Shown here one piece after another: positions 41,829 through 62,214 of a stretch of 64,000 bases of DNA (position 1 is the stretch's first letter; every line of letters starts with the position of its first letter). The DNA comes from Rickettsiales bacterium. GTDB taxonomy: Bacteria > Pseudomonadota > Alphaproteobacteria > Rickettsiales > BLZN01. Location of the stretch: NCBI GenBank assembly GCA_014132315.1, contig BLZN01000136.1, forward strand, positions 10,654 through 74,653, read 5' to 3'. Below the pieces are notes generated by a model. It worked only from the letters and a program-made list of their open reading frames with translations, did no database searches and was not told where the DNA came from. A program made the translations under genes and the position numbers.

Positions 41829-43733
41829 CTAGGCTTCCTGTGGCTCTTCTGGTATATCCATGTTGTTATTTTTTTCTGGGCCAGCAAAGGAAGATTTTTT
41901 TGATGGTCTCATATTATCATCTTCATCCTTATCGATTTTTTCTCCAGCAAGCAGACGCTTCATTTCATCTCCGGTCAGGGTCTCGTATTTCAGCAGGGCC
42001 TGAGCCAGCTTATGCAGATCTTCTATATTTTCAGCCAGCATCTTTCTAGCATTTTCATATCCTGCCATCACTATTATTTTAATTTCATTATCAATCTTAT
42101 TCTGCACATCATCTGATGTGCCCTGCCCCTCTGCTTTGTGCAACGCGGTGCTGTTTTCTTCGCTGCCATAGTATAGCGGCCCTATTTTTTCGCTCATGCC
42201 CCATTTCATAACCATTGATTTAGCCAGCTCGGTAGCTTGTTTGATATCAGAGGACGCTCCGCTTGTCACTTTATCAGGGCCAAAGATTATTTCCTCTGCC
42301 AGGCGCCCTCCCATAGCAACCGTTATATCAGCTATGATCTGTTCCCTAGTAACCGATACTTTGTCATCCTCAGGCAGGCGCATAACCAGCCCCAGCGCAT
42401 GCCCACGCGGGATGATGGTGGCTTTATAGACCGGGTCTGAGCCCTTGATATTAAGTGCAATGAGCGCATGTCCTGCCTCGTGATAGGCAGTCAGCTTTCG
42501 CTCCTCTTCTTTCATGGTGAGGGATTTTCTTTCCGCGCCCATCATTACTTTATCCTTGGCGTGCTCCAGCTCTTCCATGGTCACCACTTTTTTATCTTTT
42601 CTCGCTGCCACGAGCGCTGCTTCATTGATTAGGTTGGCCAAATCAGCCCCGGAAAATCCTGGAGTTGCCCTGGCTATATTACGCAGCACGACATTAGGGG
42701 CTAGGGATATATTTCGTGCATGCACATTCAATATCTCGTCTCTGCCTTTTATGTCAGGCATGGGCACGTGTATTCTTCTGTCGAACCTGCCAGGCCGCAG
42801 CAGCGCGCTATCCAGCACGTCCGGTCTGTTGGTTGCAGCGATTATTATCACCCCCTCATTTGTCTCGAAGCCATCCATCTCAACTAGTAGTTGGTTCAGC
42901 GTTTGCTCTCTTTCGTCGTTTCCTCCACCGACTCCAGATCCACGGTGCCTACCCACTGCATCTATCTCATCGATAAATATTATGCACGGGGCATGTTTTT
43001 TGCCCTGCTCGAACATATCGCGCACTCTGCTCGCACCGACTCCCACAAACATCTCGACGAAATCCGAACCCGAAATACTAAAGAAAGGAACTTTTGCTTC
43101 TCCTGCGATTGCCTTGGCCAGCAAAGTTTTTCCTGTGCCCGGGCCGCCAATCAACAGGCATCCTTTTGGGATCTTGCCCCCTAATGCCTGAAACTTCGCG
43201 GGATTCTTCAAAAAATCTACTACCTCGCCCAGCTCTTCCTTTGCTTCCCCTATGCCCGCCACATCTTTAAAAGTTACCTTGACTGAGCTTTCGGCATACA
43301 TTTTAATTTTGGACCTGCCAAAACCTAGGGCTTTATTGCCACCAACCTGGGCTTGCTTTAAGAAAAATATCCACACACCCACCAGCAGCAAGAGCGGCAG
43401 CCATGAAATCAGTATACTAACTATAATGCCGAATAATGATTCGTTCGAGCCTACATTTATCTGGACTTTATTTGCTCGCAAGGTGTCTACAAGATTGCCA
43501 TACTGCATTGCATTGGTCTTGAAGCCCGACCCATCCGTCATCAATCCTTTTATTTCCCGGCCCTGGATCGTTACTTTTGATATCTGACCAGACTCTACTG
43601 CATCTAGAAAATCAGAAAATGCCAAATTTACGTTGTTTCTATAATATATTCTGCCGCTGAAATAATCATAAATAAGCATAGATCCTAAAAAAATAGCAAT
43701 CCATATAACGATTTTTTGTATAAAATTTTTCAT
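41829..43733 (-). CDS. ftsH: ATP-dependent zinc metalloprotease FtsH
   Basis: 634 aa. Walker [14 protein letters not shown], Walker [13 protein letters not shown] region [19 protein letters not shown], zinc site HEAGHAL. Confidence 0.97.
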
Positions 43734-47278: not shown

Positions 47279-47667
47279 ACTTTTTTGGATTTACTGATGT
47301 AATTTAGCATAATTTAGCATAAATTTGCTTTTATTAGGAGAATTTAATGAGATTAATGTGCATCACTACAAATCCGGAGTTAGCTGAAAAACTAGCCCAT
47401 TTTTAAGCATAATCAAACAGGAATTGGCTGTATTTATTAATATTTTAAATATAGATGATATTTTCAATATTTGTCAGGTTGTTGATGCGTAGATCAACAA
47501 AGTTGCTGTTGATGAGGCGGTGCTAGTAGCCAAAGTAGCAGATAGCTTGATAGCGAAGGCATTACAAATACTCAAGCCTTATTGCTGTGGTATCATTATT
47601 TTTCTATCAGCTGAGGAAGGGGATAAGGGACTTGTTGATTGGATAAATGAGATATACGGAGTATGAT

Positions 47668-47877
47668 TTATTCATCTAAATCGGTCACATCCTCTTCCGC
47701 AATAACTTTTTCTACCTTAAATTTGGCATTATCCAGAATTTGTTTACAATCCTTTTTTAGTTTGTTGCCATGTGTGAACAATTTTATTTTTTCTTCCAAA
47801 GGCATCGTCTCGTCTTCTAATTTCTGTATAATTTCTTCTAGCTCCTTGATGCCTTGTTCGAATGTTATTTTTTTCAT
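47668..47877 (-). CDS. xseB: Exodeoxyribonuclease VII small subunit
   Basis: MKKITFEQGIKELEEIIQKLEDETMPLEE... Start taken at ATG 47877 rather than the track's upstream extension. Confidence 0.85.
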   Translation of the reverse strand: MKKITFEQGIKELEEIIQKLEDETMPLEEKIKLFTHGNKLKKDCKQILDNAKFKVEKVIAEEDVTDLDE

Positions 47878-47922
47878 GTGATATAATGGTATAATAATAT
47901 AAGGTGTTACTGAAGGTTGATT

Positions 47923-48219
47923 ATGTTTGATTTTTTGAATCAAAAGCAAGCTAAAATTTATTGCCCTGCCAAAACTGCAACTCAGTCTGGCAAGCGAAAC
48001 ACCAAATCTTGGCTCTTAGAATTCGAGCAAGAGAGCAGCAGATTTGAAGAGCCTATTATGGGTTGGACTGCATCTCGAGATACTGTTCAGCAGCTGAGGT
48101 TGTCATTTGCTAGCCTAGAGGCAGCAATAAGTTATGCAAAACAAAATAGCATAAATTACCAGCTAATACAACCAAAACAAAATAAGCTCGTTAAAGAAAG
48201 TCATATAAAAATTTTGTAG
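47923..48219 (+). CDS. ETC complex I subunit conserved-region protein (NDUFS4-like)
   Basis: AKIYCPAKTATQSGKRNTKSWLLEFE...EPIMGWTASRDT matches the alphaproteobacterial NDUFS4 homologue pattern. Confidence 0.8.
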   Translation: MFDFLNQKQAKIYCPAKTATQSGKRNTKSWLLEFEQESSRFEEPIMGWTASRDTVQQLRLSFASLEAAISYAKQNSINYQLIQPKQNKLVKESHIKIL

Positions 48220-48271
48220 ATGGTCAGTTTTGATTTATTATATATACTGTGTTTAAATTTTAGGTAGAAAA

Positions 48272-52397: not shown

Positions 52398-52486
52398 AAG
52401 GAAGAGAAGTAGCAGCGCAGATTTAGATAAAACTGGCATAAAGTTAACTATAAATAAGTTAAGATTAGCTAGTTCATTTAACCTAA

Positions 52487-53986
<1,500 letters not shown>

Positions 53987-54172: not shown

Positions 54173-54246
54173 TGGGGTGTAGCCAAGCGGTAAGGCAACG
54201 GTTTTTGGTATCGTGACCGAAGGTTCGAATCCTTCCACCCCAGCCA
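54173..54246 (+). tRNA. tRNA-Gln (anticodon TTG)
   Basis: 74 nt. Acceptor TGGGGTG/CACCCCA, D arm GCCA-AGCGGTAA-GGC, anticodon stem ACGGT/ATCGT with loop TTTTGGT, T arm GAAGG-TTCGAAT-CCTTC. CCA is encoded. Confidence 0.9.
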
Positions 54247-54634
54247 GTCTTTGCTAATTCCTTATAAGCCTTGCTTAGCCTCATTTTTGGAGGCTCTGAA
54301 ATTTCTAACTGGCTACCCTCTTAAATTTAAAAACTATTTATTACCAATGACTTATTTGGTTCCCGAATTCTGATTGGGTGCGTTCATTGCATCCTCCTTA
54401 ATTTGAAATTCCAGCACAATTTTTGATAGCCCTATAAGGTTTTTGCGCTTTCTTATGCTTTTTGTGGTGAACATCCAAATAGTTTTATAAAAGCACCGGC
54501 TGTTTGGTTTTGAAGCTCGTCCCTATCCATTCTTTTCAGGAATGCTTCTTTTTCCGCTATATCAGAATCCATGATTGTTTGAAGTTCGGGTTGATTAAGT
54601 TTTTTACTATCTTTTTAAGGGTAGATTGCCAATT

Positions 54635-54976
54635 TCACCACGCCTTTGTGCAGCCACAGCTAAACTCAAGGCAAATGATCTTCCATAGCAGCCCCTTTGC
54701 TCTTGCCCAAATAAGGCTCCGTTCCTTAGCATCCACTCTCCATTCAAGCGTTTTTTTCATCTTGGATATATCGGGAGCAGGTGATCTGTAAACAAGCAGG
54801 GTGGATTCTCGCTCATCCAGCTCTTCTTGAGAATACAGAATATCAGGCCAGGCGTTGAAATAGCCTTTTACTTTTGCCGATGGCAAATGCTTGATAGTCT
54901 GTATTGCTTTTTGGAAAGCATAAGCAACTTCGTCTGCATCGCATCCAACAGTTATGGATTGGTTTTTATTAGTCAT
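54635..54976 (-). CDS. Phage-type small protein with degenerate C-terminal HTH, probably truncated by a frameshift
   Basis: Strong SD (AAGGAGG) 6 nt upstream. ...PDISKMKKTLEWRVDAKERSLIWARAKGLLWKIICLEF then runs out of frame where relatives carry an HTH. Family assignment is from memory of methylase-adjacent phage proteins. Confidence 0.45.
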   Translation of the reverse strand: MTNKNQSITVGCDADEVAYAFQKAIQTIKHLPSAKVKGYFNAWPDILYSQEELDERESTLLVYRSPAPDISKMKKTLEWRVDAKERSLIWARAKGLLWKIICLEFSCGCTKAW

Positions 54977-55140
54977 ATTAAGCCTCCTTGTTTTGGTTGG
55001 CGGAGACCGAGTGTTATGTCTTGTCTGGCTTAGAATATGCCCAAAATGGGTGTTTATAGGCTTTGTAGCAAAAAACCAGAGGAGGCTTATATTTATACAA
55101 ATACAGCTTCTTTTTCACTCTCATTGCACCTCTGATCAGA

Positions 55141-55950
55141 TCACTGACTACGTTCTAAATTTATTGAAAACACAGCTTCAGATGTAGCAACTCTTTTTGA
55201 GCTATCACCAGCGAACTTGCTATGTCTACTCATAGAACTATAGTTTCCTACTCCTTCATATAATTCATGAATGCTTGGATGATCTGCATTAGTGATAACG
55301 ATAAAAACACTCCTGTCTTTTGCCTGTTTTACAGCCTCTGCTAGTCTGACTTGGCCATACCTGCTGAATATATTTTATTGTATTTAACAAATCCATTGTA
55401 ATTATGTTTCGCCGTGTATGGTGGATCTATCAACAGAAAATTATCTTCATCCGTTTTGTCCATAGTTTCTTCAAAGTCTGCGCTTCTAATTTCTGCATTC
55501 TCCAGAATTTTTACAATTTCAGAAAAGCTTCCACCTTTAAAAATTACCCTGTCTTTTGTTCCAATTGGAACGCTGAAACCTCCCTTCATATTAACCCTGT
55601 AAAGCTCATTCCAACATGTTCTGTTTAAATGCGAGAATTATACTGCTTTGTTAACGTCATTGCGGTATTTTCTTGCCCTTATTTCGTAATAATAATCTTT
55701 GTTATGTTTTTTCTGATGCTCTTCTGTGATTTTATAAAGGTCATCAGGATAATCTTTCATAACATTACAGAGAGATATCAAATCATTATTTACATCTGAC
55801 AAAACGCCATGTTTTAGCTTTAAGCGAAAGAAGGCAGCACTGCTGTTCAAAAAAGCTCATAATAGCTTTTATGATCTTTCGGAATCGGCAGTAAGCTTTG
55901 CTGTACAGGCCATCTTTTACCACCTGCCCATTTTAAGAAAGGGGATGCCA
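55141..55950 (-). pseudogene. Dam-type N6-adenine DNA methyltransferase, multiple lesions
   Basis: MASPFLKWAGGKRW...YYELF* (stop); FFRLKLKHGVLSDVNNDLISLCNVM...; NRTCWNELYRVNMKGGFSVPIG; FLLIDPPYTAKHNYNGF (DPPY); VFIVITNADHPSIHELY. At least three frame breaks. Confidence 0.8.
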
Positions 55951-57770
55951 TAGCCGGTTACTTCTATCTAGTTTAGGAATAAGTTCTGAATTGAGCCGGT
56001 CTACAAATTCAAGCTCTTCATCTGTATATGTTCTTAAGGAGCTTGGATGTGCTGCGATTTTTCTTAAATCATTGAATTTACCTATCCGGCCGGCGCAGTA
56101 TTTCTTATCCTTTTGCTCTTCCGGCATAGGTAGGCTGAAAGTATTTTTAAAATAGCATCCAGTTATTCTTTTGCTGAATAATTTCTTTTAGAACCATGAT
56201 GCCCAAATAAGCTTTTTTTGTTTCATGCGCTTTGAGGAATTTTCCTGTTGTTTTTTGTAAGCATGCGCTTTGATCGCTTTTTTCTCAATCCCGTTCTGCC
56301 AATAAGCTGCATCTCCAGAAGGCAACATTTGTCTTCCATGGACAACTTTTAGGGCATCTATAATAAAACCTATCATTTTCCGGGGTGTTTCCATGATAAA
56401 ATTGCTGGCTTCTCTAGTTGTTTCAGAACTTCTTTTTTTAGATATTCCTTAAACTCATCAGAGCCAAAATCACTTATTTGATCATGGATAATCTCATATA
56501 AATTGCATGTGTATTCCTTTACGCCGCCTTCACAAAACTTGCACGAGATTTTTCCCTTTATATCTTCATCGCTAGCTTTTTTTACGTACTCAAAAATCGG
56601 TCTTGCAACGCGCGCAACTTCTTTATCAATTTCCTCAGGTGACAGCTGCATGAAATCGAGTGCTTTTCTAAGTTCTAAGTATGTAATAATTTCATGCAAC
56701 AGCATTAGCTGTGCTTGAATGCCGGGATTTGTACATATAGCCATCTTTTCCATCTTCCCGCTGTTTGGGATGCGCCTGCATAATACGTTCAAAATAGCTA
56801 TTTAGTATAATTCGTGCCCGTTCGATTGTTTTTTCATCAGTTGCATCACATAAGCGCCTTTTAATAAGTTGACCATTCACGATTTTTCCCAGAAGGTCAG
56901 GGCCCATAAAACTATTAACAGCTTCTGATATCGTAAGATTTTGATATTTTTCTGCAGGTATATCCGTAACACCAAGCCTTCTAAAAAGAGAGCCGGCTTT
57001 GTCATTACTCAACACTCTTACCAAAGCAGAAGCCAAAGCATTGAGAGCTGTTTTTCAGATCTTTGTCTCCTAGATTAAGATCAGCAAGCAATGCTACTAA
57101 TAAACTTTTAGGAACGCTTCTTGCTTATGGTTAATATTAATGAAGAGATTTGCCTCTTTAATGGTATTCATTTTATCAAATGCCAAAACACATAAGCTTT
57201 GATCTAAAAAATTATCATCTATTTTAGAGTATCCATACAGTCGGTGTTGGCCGTCAATGACTCAAGCAGAACAATACTTCGAAGGAAGTGTTGTACAGCC
57301 AAATTTTATATTTTGATCCGTATTTTCCTTATTAGAGATCAAATCAAATTTTGGGTGTTTCATGAATTTCATGATCAAGTTTGTTAGAAAGAGACCTCCA
57401 TTTTCTATGTATTTTCCTATTTCTTTTAACCTTCTTGGAGAAATCATGCGTTGATAAGTTGGGCGCCCTTCAGGATTGTTCAAAGCATGATGATTGACGT
57501 ATGATATCTTTAATAATTGCCGAGGAGCTACAACAAAGCTGTGAAAGGTTTCACCAAAAATTTTGCCGTGTACAGCTGGGATTTTGTAGTTTTCATAATA
57601 GGGATTTTTTGATCACGCAGCAAATCGTCAAGTAACTGAAATTTTCCAGCAGAGCCCATATGCTTAATGAACATTTCATAATATTGAAGTGCATTCTCAG
57701 CTAGAATGACAATATTCCGTTCAGAAGCTCTATGAATGTCGGACTCTGACCAAATAATATTGTTGTCCAC
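55933..57770 (-). pseudogene. DGQHR-domain (ParB/DndB-like) protein with C-terminal Rx4H HEPN-like region, disrupted
   Basis: GRPTYQRMISPRRLKEIGKYIENGGLFLTN...SA*VIDGQHRLYGYS (in-frame TGA; DGQHR codons at 57241-57255), then several frameshifts. The tail is KFNDLRKIAAHPSSLRTYTDEELEFV. Confidence 0.75.
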
Positions 57771-57853
57771 ATAAGCCCATATAATTTTATTTTTCTACCA
57801 AAGCGATCAAAAATGGATTTTCTGATGTAATCTTATAGAAGAATTTTTGTTAA

Positions 57854-58135
57854 TTATAGGTAGTATTCGTTTACGTAAAACCCTATCTCTATCATATATG
57901 GCAGATCGTTTATTTCACAATAATTAGTACTCATTGTTTCATATACAACTTTACTAGTATTAGTCGTAAAGTAATGACCATCGTCAGTAAATCCACGGGT
58001 AAATTCACAAGGAGCTTCATAACCTTTGTACATTTCATCGATCTTGGGTTTGACTATCGCACTGATATCAAAATGCCCCTTTGTAGAATTACAAAAACCC
58101 ATTTGTTTTTCAGTTCTTGATGTTTTATTTGGCAT
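57854..58135 (-). CDS. Intact 93-aa orphan ORF inside the decayed island
   Basis: Uninterrupted ORF with a strong SD (AGGGAGGAC) 5-8 nt upstream of the ATG. I recognise no motif. Confidence 0.5.
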   Translation of the reverse strand: MPNKTSRTEKQMGFCNSTKGHFDISAIVKPKIDEMYKGYEAPCEFTRGFTDDGHYFTTNTSKVVYETMSTNYCEINDLPYMIEIGFYVNEYYL

Positions 58136-58258
58136 TTTTTAGTCCTCCCTTTTTGTTGTGTTATTTTTTTAATCCAAAATAGCTATAAACTCCTAAATTT
58201 TGTCCAAGCCACCCACTACTTTGGTGAAAGTTAATATATTATATTTTTAGGAGTTGTG

Positions 58259-58770
58259 TCAAGCAATGGTCTCCGGTATATCTTTTTGAAGAGCTTGTCT
58301 TACTCCTTTTTCTTTTAGCTTACATTCAACAACAAAAGCTGTTTTCTGATCACAGGAAAATACATCTATTTGCTTCTTGCTAGTCTTTCCATGCTTTTTA
58401 TCGAGCTTAATGACAAAGTTTTCGCTGTTGAGGTTTTTCCGTATCCCATTTTATGAAGTAAGCACCAAAAATGATCTTCGAGCAGAACATCGTGTGACTT
58501 TGGTGTCTTCATACCTGTTTTGGTTTTTCTTTGAATTTCCCAGCCATTTTCTTCGCATTCCGGAACGCCGGCCTTGTGAATACTTTTCTCAATAAATTTT
58601 TTGTTTTTTACACGATATAGCTTTTTCTGCTCTTGAGTTCCGACAGATAAAGGAGAGAAAAACTTTTTATTACTTTCTTTGTATATATCGATGCTTATTT
58701 GACCGGGATTCAACTCAGGTATTTTTGTAAAATTATTTTTTTGTTAACTATCCGGTTTGATTTTACTCAT
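58259..58770 (-). pseudogene. PD-(D/E)xK restriction-endonuclease-like gene, disrupted
   Basis: MSKIKPDS* (in-frame TAA at 58744-58746), then ...LLEDHFWCLLHKMG, a frameshift, then ...KKQIDVFSCDQKTAFVVECK (D...ExK core), truncated soon after. Confidence 0.6.
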
Positions 58771-59107
58771 AAACTATAAAATCTTATAGTTAAAAGTTGC
58801 AGAAGACTCAGGCTTTTTAAATGTGTGCGCTAATCAATTTAAATCCTGAAACCAGGCTCAAACTTATTTTTTTTAAATAGGTCGCCCAAACTGGTATTGT
58901 AAGTTCCTGAGCCCGTATTGGCAAGTGATTCCTGAGCCAGTATAGCTGGATTTTTCTGACCAAGAATCTCTACATCGCTTTATTTATGGGACTTCCAGTG
59001 GAAGCCGACAATCAACATATACCTTTCTTTTGAGGCTCTGAAATAGTCCGGTAAAGACAGCAATATCTTCATTTATGAATTTTTTCATAGCTTGTTTAAT
59101 AATTTTT

Positions 59108-61222
59108 CTAGTGTGATGGCAGATCACTCTTATTAGTATTGCGCATCTCTTTAGAGCTGCCTATGCGCCCTGCCCATGATTTTTCTGGCGGTGTCTCTGA
59201 GTCTGAGTGCATTTTTTGTGTTTCTGGAATTGGTGTTGCCTCTTCCGCAGGATCATTTTGCTGTTCCTTGTCCGGATGCTCAACATGTGTCTGTTTCAGT
59301 CCAAGCATTTCACTTAATATTTCTGAATCTAGGTATGAAACCTCCCCCAGTGATACGCTGTGAGCCAATTCAGGACGAGATTTAAATTCAAATTTTATAG
59401 CGAGATTTATTAAAAAATTTTTGATTATCTCGATCCAAGAAGGCTTCGGCAACAAACCATTCTCTTTTAATGCATCGGTACCGCAAAATATAGCTAGTTT
59501 TACAGCATTTAGCGCATTATGCTCAATATTCATCAGTGGCACTCCTGCCATGTTCCTGGTCTTTAGCAGGCTTTGAATAGCCGTCTGATGCTCTTCTGAG
59601 TCTAGACCTAGAATAAATTTTTGTGTGTCTATATTATATGCAATTTTTATTGAATCGAGCAGCTGGCGTATTTGCTCATCTAGCACACCCAGATTTGCCG
59701 ACAGCTCCTGTGGTGTTTTCTGTTTTGCCAGGGTCAAGATATTTGTTACTTGCTTTTCTAGTCTTTTTATGGCTGATAATTCCCGCTCATCCTTTGTTAG
59801 ATATTGCCTTTCGAGCTCAGCAACAGAGTCTTGAGTATTCCTAATGTCGGCTTTTATTGCTTTTTCAAGCCACGATTTGCTCTGCTCCTCTTGTTCGCTT
59901 GATAATCCATATAATCCACATAATGCTGACAATTTCACCTGCTGTTTTTCAAGTTTTTGTAGCTTGTTCTCTATTTCCATTGCTGCATTTTCTATCTCCT
60001 CAAGCTCTCTGATTAAATTTTCTTTAAGATCCTGATGTTTTTCCTTAGGCTTCTCAGGCTCCTCGCCTTCCTTGTCCTCTAAAATTTTCAGTCGGCTTCT
60101 ATATTCCATAGCTCGCGCTGATAAGGGGGCAATTTGCCGCTCTTTTGTTGCTATCTCCCTCTCTTTTCTTTGTATGCGCTCATTATAATCTACTAATATT
60201 ACATCTTTTATATATTCTTTGCTTCCTTCGCTATCAAATTCTTGCAATGGTGCCGTCATTTTTATTTCCCAGTCCTCGTGTTCCTTGTAGAGCTTTTGCA
60301 GTTCACGTTCTAATTGCTTTTTATTGTCCTCCAATATTTCTATTTCGCTTTCAATTTTCCTTAATTCCGATTTGTTTTTTTGGATTTCTTCGTTCTCTTT
60401 CTTGGTCTCATACTTCTCTATCTCTCTACTATCAGTGTCTCGAGACATTCCTCGTCTTAAATCTCGCGCTTTGCTCAGCAGGCTCTCTGAGCTTCCCTTC
60501 AAAGCTTCGTATGCATCATCGTAGATCTGCCCTTTTATTGCTTTTTCTATGACCTCATTAACAGTTGACTGCGCTGAAATACTATCAACACCGAGCACTC
60601 TTGCTTTAAATTTCGCTATTGCCTCTTCTGATAGCAGCTTAGAGATCTCCTCCGGTGCTAAGCTGGAGATTCCGGGTAGAATATTTTCGCTGAAGCTATA
60701 TTCTGTATATTCTGGCTGCTTTTCTTCTGGGTTAACCTGATATTCTTTGCCATAAAGGGCTGTAAGCATTAATTTAGCTGTGTTATTGAGCTTGAACTTG
60801 CCGGAGATCCTGTCTTTAAAGTTGCGCTCCTTTCTGTCTTTCATTCGAGCTAGCTTGCACAGCTCCTTCCAGGCTTTTTTTTCTTTTATTTCTATGCCAG
60901 TAACAATTTGCCAATATTCATCAATTTTAACTTCTAAGATTTCTGCTATATGCTTATTAATAAATCCTAATATTTCCCTATCTAGATGATCAAAATATTT
61001 TTCTTCGAGAGCTTTTTTGTCTGTCACCGGCTGATCAGAGTCTAGCTCTTCTTGTATTAGCTTTTGCGCTGAGATATTTAATATCTGTTGCGTTACATAG
61101 CTTAAAGAGTCATCCCCTTGGATTATTTCATTAAACTTTCTGTCTCTTTCAGAGATCTTTTGCCTGCCTTCGAATGCCAGCCTATAAGCTGTCTCCTCTA
61201 ATGTAATTTTAGGACCATCCAT
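59108..61222 (-). CDS. Large acidic coiled-coil orphan protein
   Basis: 704-aa uninterrupted ORF with long E/K/Q-rich heptad-like tracts (e.g. KNKSELRKIESEIEILEDNKKQLERELQKLYKEHEDWE). No TM segment and no enzymatic motif that I recognise. Confidence 0.6.
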   Translation of the reverse strand: MDGPKITLEETAYRLAFEGRQKISERDRKFNEIIQGDDSLSYVTQQILNISAQKLIQEELDSDQPVTDKKALEEKYFDHLDREILGFINKHIAEILEVKIDEYWQIVTGIEIKEKKAWKELCKLARMKDRKERNFKDRISGKFKLNNTAKLMLTALYGKEYQVNPEEKQPEYTEYSFSENILPGISSLAPEEISKLLSEEAIAKFKARVLGVDSISAQSTVNEVIEKAIKGQIYDDAYEALKGSSESLLSKARDLRRGMSRDTDSREIEKYETKKENEEIQKNKSELRKIESEIEILEDNKKQLERELQKLYKEHEDWEIKMTAPLQEFDSEGSKEYIKDVILVDYNERIQRKEREIATKERQIAPLSARAMEYRSRLKILEDKEGEEPEKPKEKHQDLKENLIRELEEIENAAMEIENKLQKLEKQQVKLSALCGLYGLSSEQEEQSKSWLEKAIKADIRNTQDSVAELERQYLTKDERELSAIKRLEKQVTNILTLAKQKTPQELSANLGVLDEQIRQLLDSIKIAYNIDTQKFILGLDSEEHQTAIQSLLKTRNMAGVPLMNIEHNALNAVKLAIFCGTDALKENGLLPKPSWIEIIKNFLINLAIKFEFKSRPELAHSVSLGEVSYLDSEILSEMLGLKQTHVEHPDKEQQNDPAEEATPIPETQKMHSDSETPPEKSWAGRIGSSKEMRNTNKSDLPSH

Positions 61223-61347
61223 ATTTCCTCTGAAAATAATGAGTTATATTTATTTAAATTTTAATAAAAAGAAATAAAATATTCCTTAAAAATCCTCTTA
61301 TTGTATGATAGACTTTTATGTTGATTATATATAGGTATGCAGCAAGA

Positions 61348-62214
61348 ATGAAAATTTATCATGCGCTCCTAGCAACCCTTGTAGCTTTTTTATGGGGATT
61401 TAATTTCGTTGCAGCCAAGATATTATGTGCTGAAATACCCGTATTTTTCTGGCTTACTTTGAGATATTTGATGGTGACCGTGGTGCTGGCGCCAATCTAT
61501 CCCAAACCTCCCGTCTCGATTAAATCTATATTAATGATGAGCCTGGTGTTTGGCGCACTAAACTCCGGCATGCGCTTTGTTGGCATGCGCTTAGGTCTAG
61601 ATGTATCTTTGGCTGTTGTGGTTGATAAGTTAAGCGTGCCGCTTTCCGTGTTATTAAGCCTGATGTTTTTGGGCGAAAAAGTTCGTTGGCGGACAATACT
61701 CGGAATTATTATCTCCTTATCTGGAATCTTAGTGCTGACAAAAACACCGGCAGCGATTAGTAGCTTTTTGGGTTTTTTGCTGGTCGCGCTAGGGGCGCTT
61801 GCTTGGGCGATATATAATCTGCAAGTTAAGATAGCAACGCCTAAGAACAGCAATGCTCTGCTGGCTTGGGTGAGTTTGGTGGCCTCATTAATGCTTGGAT
61901 TGATGTCTGCAGCCTTTGAGCAAGGACAATTCAAAGCTATATCAGATGCCAGCTTCGCCGCTCATTTGGCCTTGCTTTACACTGGTTTGGGCTCAATATT
62001 GCTGGGTCATTGCGTTTGGTATTATCTGCTTTCGCAATATAGCCTGGGCAGCGTGGCGCCATTCTCTTTGCTAGAGCCAATCTTTGGCATAGCAAGCGCG
62101 GTAATTATTCTAAATGAGAGGCCGGAACTACAGATGTTAATAGGCTCTGCCATTACCATTATGGGCGTTGCCATAATTGTTATCAGAAGACCTCAGCACG
62201 CAAGAACACGCTAA
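61348..62214 (+). CDS. EamA/DMT-superfamily transporter
   Basis: About 10 TM segments in two EamA halves. Starts MKIYHALLATLVAFLWGFNFVAAK. ATG 61348 preferred over the track start. Confidence 0.75.
   Translation: MKIYHALLATLVAFLWGFNFVAAKILCAEIPVFFWLTLRYLMVTVVLAPIYPKPPVSIKSILMMSLVFGALNSGMRFVGMRLGLDVSLAVVVDKLSVPLSVLLSLMFLGEKVRWRTILGIIISLSGILVLTKTPAAISSFLGFLLVALGALAWAIYNLQVKIATPKNSNALLAWVSLVASLMLGLMSAAFEQGQFKAISDASFAAHLALLYTGLGSILLGHCVWYYLLSQYSLGSVAPFSLLEPIFGIASAVIILNERPELQMLIGSAITIMGVAIIVIRRPQHARTR

Follow-up and report, generated by a model that had tools for sequence, protein, structure and literature searches.

Probable Remnant of a Two-Gene Restriction-Modification-Like Cassette in a Coral-Associated Rickettsiales Genome

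Here, we report a decayed locus beside a tRNA-Gln gene in a 64,000-nucleotide stretch of a Rickettsiales genome (positions 10,654 to 74,653 of contig BLZN01000136.1, GenBank assembly GCA_014132315.1; this whole stretch is called the window, and positions are counted from its first letter). The segment at 54.25 to 58.7 kb is best explained, and in our judgment likely, as a decayed remnant of horizontally acquired DNA adjoining tRNA-Gln and as the fossil of a mobile restriction-modification (R-M)-like cassette, which would have encoded a fusion protein with PD-(D/E)xK nuclease, DGQHR, and HEPN-like domains together with a Dam methylase. The window copy is non-functional today. For this genome the locus is a dead relic of an R-M-type cassette that an obligate coral-associated Rickettsiales lineage appears to have taken up and then lost; what makes it useful is that it leads to a compact two-gene module that is widespread yet absent from PADLOC.

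The DNA comes from SESOKO1, a single-cell genome obtained from Acropora tenuis coral, sequenced from cells amplified by multiple displacement amplification (Illumina MiSeq, 876× coverage) and assembled with SPAdes (PMC7686419). Locus tags in the window belong to the RLOatenuis_65xx series (exact protein look-ups). Window and genome have a GC content of about 41%, the genes being dense and mostly intact; the cassette segment has 34 to 38%. Relatives of the large cassette protein were collected by scanning a single genome for each GTDB species. Gene neighborhood was analyzed at 80 loci, 5 of which were too short to tell whether a methylase gene adjoins (75 informative loci). Residue conservation was taken from 112 homologues (mean identity, about 57%), and domain scans covered 20 members. 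A sister strain was represented by a contig (L087) from an independent ENA metagenome assembly.

Structure and age of the decayed genes

The features of the cassette are as follows (aa, amino acids; ORF, open reading frame).

58262 to 58713, minus strand: 5' part of the fusion gene, codons 1 to 152, with the N-terminal region and the PD-(D/E)xK core (tblastn and frameshift-aware alignment)
57846 to 58261, minus strand: insert of 416 bp (31% GC), lodged between codons 152 and 153 of the fusion gene, with the alignment contiguous on either side
57854 to 58135, minus strand: orphan 93-aa ORF (GFZ86324.1, RLOatenuis_6570) inside the insert (ORF list)
55933 to 57845, minus strand: 3' part of the fusion gene, codons 153 to about 780 (tblastn and frameshift-aware alignment to the best-matching intact protein)
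55141 to 55951, minus strand: pseudogene of a Dam-family (D12 class) N6-adenine DNA methyltransferase (Pfam PF02086, PADLOC MTase_II)

A preliminary description, made from the sequence alone, had treated the PD-(D/E)xK and DGQHR parts as separate genes. A search with its DGQHR gene returned 450 relatives, the best 120 of which are single proteins of 624 to 997 aa (mostly about 782 aa), some 200 aa longer than the query; their N-terminal 150 to 170 residues are the region that had been called a separate nuclease gene. The best match, P0001 (781 aa; E = 1e-195, far beyond chance), aligned to the window (tblastn) with residues 1 to 93 at 58713 to 58441, 94 to 152 at 58438 to 58262, and 153 to 778 at 57845 to 55966. 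With the intervening DNA removed, the repaired window gene is identical to P0001 at 512 of 765 aligned residues (67%; frameshift-aware alignment). Because P0001 aligns as one continuous gene across the insert, the cassette genes number two and not four or five: the supposed two genes are one gene of about 780 codons split by 416 bp. Single-gene structure and two-gene cassette are, on these alignments, very probable.

The 5' part has a possible TTG start at 58713 and the motifs LLED..., QIDVFSCD, and VVECK. The 3' part holds the end of the PD-(D/E)xK domain, a DGQHR/DndB-like ParB-fold domain, a helical region, and a C-terminal Rx4H (HEPN-like) domain with RKIAAH in the tail of the gene. Nine frameshifts (codons 94 [position 58438], 169, 238, 393, 415, 521, 621, 695, and 716) and two in-frame stops interrupt the gene, namely, TAA at codon 154 (57835) and TGA at W345 (57264), which directly precedes VIDGQHRLYGYS in the three-frame translation of the minus strand. 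The window copy retains VIDGQHRLYGYS, and its raw concatenated frames reach only 24.1 bits against the DGQHR-family profile; the DGQHR region matches PADLOC DpdB at 4.5e-10.

The DGQHR-gene and Dam reading frames overlap at 55933 to 55951. The reconstructed methylase scores 121.6 bits against PF02086 (cut-off, 22) and 9e-75 against PADLOC MTase_II, and its frames carry FLKWAGGKRW (S-adenosylmethionine binding), CWNELYRVN, and IDPPYT (with the catalytic DPPY). It is 61% identical (frameshift-aware alignment) to the intact methylase partner of P0001 (locus L001), which itself scores 240.5 bits against TIGR00571 (cut-off, 114.85). The Dam reading frame is not uninterrupted: where at least three lesions had been reported there are exactly three, a frameshift at codon 33 (55854), TAA at codon 105 (55640), and a frameshift at codon 194 (55372). 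The locus is methylation linked, as had been proposed, and every motif quoted in the preliminary description (IDVFSCD...VVECK, the TGA before VIDGQHRLYGYS, RKIAAH, FLKWAGGKRW, NELYRVN, and DPPY) was found.

No second copy of the 416-bp insert was found within the window, and it has no terminal inverted repeats, no Rfam match, and no blastn match in plasmids or phages, so that readings as a miniature inverted-repeat transposable element, an intron, or an insertion sequence are unsupported; its flanks show only a weak imperfect repeat (ATTGCT/ATTCTT). The sister strain has the insert as well (93.5% identity). The 93-aa ORF, formerly listed as an intact member of the operon, is indeed open, but it is an orphan inside this later insert and occurs in none of the 80 related loci. 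Compared with its sister copy, it shows 18 nonsynonymous and 2 synonymous differences (omega, about 2.2), against an omega of 0.09 to 0.38 for neighboring housekeeping genes between the same two strains; it is under no purifying selection. An exhaustive HMMER search of 1.84 billion representative proteins returned only the ORF itself, and Pfam, PADLOC, and PHROG gave no match. Judged by these comparisons, the ORF and the insert are no component of the system.

The sister contig is colinear with window positions 41842 to 62336 (95.8% nucleotide identity over a 20.5-kb alignment with 24 gap openings), and about 20 of the 24 indels fall inside the 4.9-kb decayed segment, at 54.3 to 58.3 kb. Both strains have the fusion-gene frameshift at codon 94, TAA at 154, frameshift at 169, TGA at 345, frameshift at about 394, and frameshifts at 695 and 716, as well as all three Dam lesions; further stops and frameshifts are private to one strain or the other. 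Because an independent assembly has the same insert and most of the lesions plus private ones, these are true old pseudogenes rather than products of sequencing error. The cassette had died before the two sampled strains diverged and has since drifted neutrally. Pseudogene status, which the preliminary description had expressed by calling the locus a fossil, is practically certain.

Two structural alternatives were weighed. One is that a type II R-M system is in fact intact and working and that errors of sequencing or assembly account for its frame breaks. Sequencing errors had been offered as the possibility that would overturn the fossil reading, and several frameshifts do lie within or beside A-runs in a genome from amplified single cells. 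Three substitution-type stops and a 416-bp insert are not explicable as homopolymer errors, however, and the depth of Illumina coverage, the insert and 11 lesions shared with the sister assembly, and the unbroken flanking genes of 200 to 1,600 codons (uninterrupted ORFs elsewhere in the window reach 1,625 codons) exclude such errors so far that we regard this explanation as hardly credible. The other alternative is a multi-nuclease defense operon in which nuclease, small protein, DGQHR-HEPN, Dam, and helix-turn-helix protein each had a gene of its own, four or five in all. It has in its favor five minus-strand stretches that follow one another closely, head to tail, and a 93-aa ORF that has an upstream GGGAGG, a Shine-Dalgarno-like motif, and is open in both strains. 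Yet the nuclease and DGQHR parts form one ORF in every intact relative, the one shorter relative checked (P0015) is truncated and not split, and the window alignment passes over the insert from codon 152 directly to codon 153. The 93-aa ORF has no homologue and an omega of about 2, and neither it nor the DUF6362 phage-type remnant described below recurs in the 80 loci, so that the proposed check of neighbor co-occurrence fails for three of the five parts. We hold the operon reading to be very improbable.

Intact relatives and domain architecture

Intact copies were found in at least 519 other bacterial species of more than 10 phyla, the hosts including Pseudomonadota, Acidobacteriota, Planctomycetota, Verrucomicrobiota, Thermodesulfobacteriota, Nitrospirota, Coriobacteriia, Melainabacteria, and others; the expectation that an intact version could be recovered from syntenic relatives was thus borne out. 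Cultured hosts include Pararhizobium polonicum F5.1, Pseudovibrio axinellae DSM 24994, Stenotrophomonas daejeonensis JCM 16244, Lysobacter cavernae KCTC 42875, and Gimibacter soli, and they make the module directly testable. Resolvase or recombinase genes adjoin some intact copies, and IMG/VR viral contigs carry a few.

A Dam gene stands directly downstream of the large gene on the same strand in 65 of the 80 loci and directly upstream in 4. Six loci had no Dam match, five of them with another methylase-like ORF downstream and one with none: three have a 375- to 390-aa ORF beginning MKYMGSK or MKYMGHK (the one tested matched PF02086 at 4.8e-15, a divergent D12 methylase), and two have a DPPW ORF (the one tested matched MT-A70 at 2.9e-27). 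The nuclease gene therefore has an adenine methylase ORF beside it, the linkage looked for in R-M systems, in 74 of the 75 informative loci. Stop/start overlaps of 1 to 4 nucleotides predominate between the two genes, and their pairwise distances correlate (r = 0.54; reached by 0 of 999 Mantel permutations). Clustering of all flanking ORFs in the 80 loci gave no third conserved gene, the other recurrent clusters being antisense shadow ORFs within the large gene. Conserved methylase pairing, gene overlaps, co-variation, spread over phyla, recombinase neighbors, and occurrence in viral contigs together are characteristic of a mobile R-M-type cassette of two genes.

The relative P0015 (624 aa), whose locus also has an MT-A70 gene, was considered as a natural split gene and rejected: the ORF was called from a start too far downstream, and ahead of that start the frame stays open no further than residue 92. 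The protein is therefore N-terminally truncated.

The central domain of P0001 scores 165.4 bits against TIGR03187 (DGQHR; cut-off, 58.85) and 56.3 bits against PF14072 (cut-off, 29.1). It matches PADLOC DpdB at 4.6e-26 over about 320 residues (238 to 564) and also Pfam DndB, with the DGQHR motif kept. The protein is neither DndB proper (equivalog TIGR03233, 27.8 bits against a cut-off of 328) nor DpdB proper (equivalog NF041060, 85.7 bits against 300), and no dndCDE, dpdA, or dpdC neighbors occur in the 80 loci, where only the methylase is conserved.

Invariant residues of the N-terminal domain are E131, C132, and K133; conservation of D118 and E81 is at least 90%. Hjc was matched in 17 of 20 members (best E = 0.0015) and Card1_endonuc in 16 of 20 (best E = 5.1e-5), all below the Pfam gathering score; the bit scores obtained for Card1_endonuc in a separate scan are 19.7 to 22.7 (cut-off, 26.4). 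In the AlphaFold model (pLDDT, 84.6), the best PDB matches of this domain (Foldseek) are Cdn1, VC1899, Card1, Can2, AF1548, and McrC, with E values of 4e-4 to 4e-3 and a probability of 1.0 for Cdn1, VC1899, Card1, and Can2. From sequence and model the domain is assigned as a PD-(D/E)xK (restriction-endonuclease-fold) nuclease.

The C-terminal Rx4H motif has an invariant R746 and an H751 that is at least 90% conserved. HEPN_Swt1 was matched in 9 of 20 members (best, 1.2e-4), Abi_2 in 6 of 20, and PADLOC AbiD at 0.009; a relative on plasmid pNL1 matches HEPN_Swt1 at 7.9e-4. A separate model of residues 612 to 781 is all-helical (pLDDT, 90.6). When PDB sequences were searched with profiles of the family and of its C-terminal domain, no meaningful match emerged, so that by sequence no member has a relative of solved structure. 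The conserved motif and the sub-threshold Swt1 and Abi_2 matches make a Swt1/Abi2-type HEPN domain probable, as had been suggested for the tail of the gene.

PADLOC (2023) names no such system and reports only a methylase and a DpdB-like match, in agreement with the preliminary description, which had recognized none. Source databases label the large protein as "DGQHR domain-containing protein," "DndB," or hypothetical, and none labels it a restriction enzyme. The papers found to mention DGQHR do not describe the cassette, nor does a 2024 reappraisal of Dnd systems, and none of the tools applied lists the family as a defense system.

Proposed function and comparison with known systems

An R-M-type function of the ancestor is favored, with moderate confidence, on comparative grounds. 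The core was very probably an operon of two genes, encoding a fusion protein of about 780 aa and a translationally coupled Dam methylase. The methylase would mark host DNA; the fusion protein would load on DNA through its nucleotide-gated DGQHR domain, which by analogy with DpdB and SspE may be a DNA-stimulated nucleoside triphosphatase (NTPase) or a clamp that licenses or positions cleavage; and the PD-(D/E)xK domain would cut unmarked incoming DNA. The HEPN-like domain could serve as a back-up RNase or as a dimerization or assembly element. In the Rickettsiales lineage, the 416-bp insertion, stops, and frameshifts killed the cassette. The analogy draws on reports that DpdB is a homodimeric, DNA-stimulated ATPase, that the DGQ(H/Q)R motif is required for the NTPase activity of SspE, and that ParB proteins are CTP-gated DNA clamps (PMC10164549).

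The predicted pair resembles type II R-M systems with Dam-family (D12, alpha-class) methylases, such as those of the DpnII/MboI type, in coupling the genes of a nuclease and an N6-adenine methylase, in the PD-(D/E)xK fold, and in being mobile and patchy across phyla. It differs from them in a predicted nuclease partner of about 780 aa with additional DGQHR ParB-fold NTPase-like and HEPN-like domains; because the nuclease carries these two extra domains, an NTP-dependent or multi-pronged action is suggested. DndB (phosphorothioation), DpdB (7-deazaguanine), and the central domain are all members of the DGQHR/ParB-Srx family; to that domain the large protein adds the N-terminal nuclease and the C-terminal Rx4H domain, with a methylase as its partner. 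SspE, GmrSD, and BrxU likewise fuse a ParB-fold NTPase with DGQ(H/Q)R to a DNA nuclease in modification-linked defense (PMC4619093, PMC10164549). Their nuclease is a C-terminal HNH/DUF1524 domain and they sense or target modified DNA (type IV-like or phosphorothioate sensing), whereas the protein described here has an N-terminal PD-(D/E)xK domain and its own methylase, which would imply attack on unmodified DNA. To Card1, Can2, and Cdn1, which are CARF-nuclease effectors, and to VC1899, its best structural matches and the source of the recurrent Card1_endonuc hits, the likeness is at the level of the fold, and no CARF sensor domain is present.

The preliminary description had regarded the combination as undescribed, but the fusion is partly known. 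ParB/DGQHR fusions to PD-(D/E)xK and HEPN domains have been noted in R-M contexts (PMC3632139), and ParB (Saro_3948) is a single table entry under Swt1-like HEPN fusions (Anantharaman et al. 2013, PMC3710099). A 769-aa protein of Novosphingobium aromaticivorans plasmid pNL1, 33.6% identical to P0001 over 94% of its length, is probably this catalogued Saro_3948, so that the fusion appears to have been noticed before; the pNL1 branch differs in having no Dam neighbor. As an R-M-type module, the architecture of PD-(D/E)xK, DndB/DpdB-like NTPase, and probable HEPN domains in one chain appears, from sequence comparison, to be new among studied restriction enzymes, and intact copies could show what role DGQHR has on the restriction side of a modification system.

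Several observations weigh against the account given here. The plasmid relatives (pNL1 and Agrobacterium sp. S7/73), at 33% identity, have no methylase neighbor and sit beside a trio of other genes instead, so that the bond between the large protein and Dam is not a strict one. Among named families, the closest to the central domain are DndB and DpdB, and in their systems these serve modification rather than restriction. No member tested reaches the Pfam gathering score for HEPN, and the C-terminal model has no significant PDB match (Foldseek). Nor is the segment marked as an island: no repeat of the tRNA-Gln 3' end longer than 11 nucleotides occurs anywhere in the window and no integrase-like ORF occurs at 54.2 to 59.1 kb (ORF list and Pfam scan), these being the two marks of a tRNA-linked island. 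A literature search found no experimental report or paper on the family.

The kinship of the central domain leads to a reading in which the ancestor was no restriction system and the large DGQHR protein assisted or regulated the methylase, its nuclease fold serving only for DNA binding or access. DpdB is an ATPase needed for modification and without nuclease activity (PMC10164549), and DndB has been reported as a transcriptional regulator (PMC4507180, PMC10853773). The invariant E131, C132, and K133 and the highly conserved D118 nevertheless argue for a working nuclease, Dam-family methylases elsewhere work alone, and the DndB and DpdB equivalog scores are far under their cut-offs. Adenine methylases of three unrelated or divergent types have, moreover, replaced one another as the partner of a large protein that stayed, which is typical of mark-dependent restriction partners and therefore fits a mark-dependent nuclease; we consider a helper role unlikely. 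A cassette acting mainly in abortive infection or addiction, in which the HEPN-like RNase or the nuclease kills the cell upon methylation failure or phage interference, would suit the conserved Rx4H motif and the recurrent sub-threshold Swt1-HEPN, Abi_2, and AbiD matches, and earlier work has proposed that HEPN domains joined to R-M nucleases act as second-line suicide RNases (PMC3710099, PMC3632139). The C-terminal model, however, drew no significant PDB match, and killing of this kind is compatible with the R-M reading rather than exclusive of it; as the main function it has a low probability in our estimate. Within the R-M reading, it is possible, if doubtful, that the intact family constitutes a new mechanistic class, in which a ParB-type nucleotide switch, and not a helicase or translocase, would couple the detection of unmethylated DNA to cleavage, with the HEPN RNase as a suicide back-up.

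The two plasmid relatives adjoin the same trio of genes (pNL1, locus L085, NC_009426.1, 118123 to 130342; Agrobacterium sp. S7/73 plasmid, locus L086). It consists of a short DGQHR protein (335 aa), a radical SAM protein (537 aa), and a GHKL/HATPase_c_3 ATPase (507 aa) and may, from its sequence, be a different, uncharacterized DNA-modification or defense module with the same effector.

Surrounding sequence

Two further features belong to the decayed segment and its left boundary.

54173 to 54246, plus strand: tRNA-Gln (UUG), left boundary of the decayed segment (ARAGORN; Rfam tRNA, 60.7 bits)
54590 to 54976, minus strand: DUF6362/phrog_6836 phage-type remnant (Pfam PF19889, 3.4e-17; PHROG, 5e-18)

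The DUF6362 ORF (54635 to 54976) is ended early by a TGA beyond which the PHROG homology continues. Because this gene is also stop-truncated, and is frameshifted in the sister strain, the whole of 54.25 to 59.1 kb looks like decayed foreign DNA. A small phage-type remnant had been included in the operon; the remnant is present, but DUF6362 occurs in 0 of 80 related loci and is no part of the cassette. The small frames at 54250 to 54640 had no match in PADLOC, Pfam, or PHROG scans.

The tRNA-Gln gene is 100% identical in the sister strain (0 mismatches) and lies about 190 bp from a complete 16S rRNA gene on the opposite strand (52486 to 53986, minus strand). The 16S rRNA gene is solitary, with no 23S, 5S, or spacer tRNA genes adjoining; a split rRNA operon is the usual state in Rickettsiales.

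On the other side of the segment, an ORF at 59108 to 61222 (minus strand) encodes a charged, coiled-coil-like protein of 704 aa (GFZ86352.1; 723 aa in the sister strain) without a PHROG match. It is fast evolving between the strains (omega, about 0.88, compared with 0.09 to 0.38 in its neighbors) and may, from its sequence, be a host-interaction or effector protein. An EamA-family transporter is encoded by one 298-aa ORF in the window (61318 to 62214) and by two ORFs (156 and 145 aa) in the sister contig (19560 to 20427), where the split reflects either ongoing decay or an error of a low-coverage (3.85×) assembly. In the otherwise gene-dense window, the stretches at 32800 to 34800, 36300 to 37700, 40200 to 41100, and 47300 to 48270 have no ORF of at least 150 aa and no Rfam match at the gathering threshold; they may be further pseudogenes or non-coding RNA.

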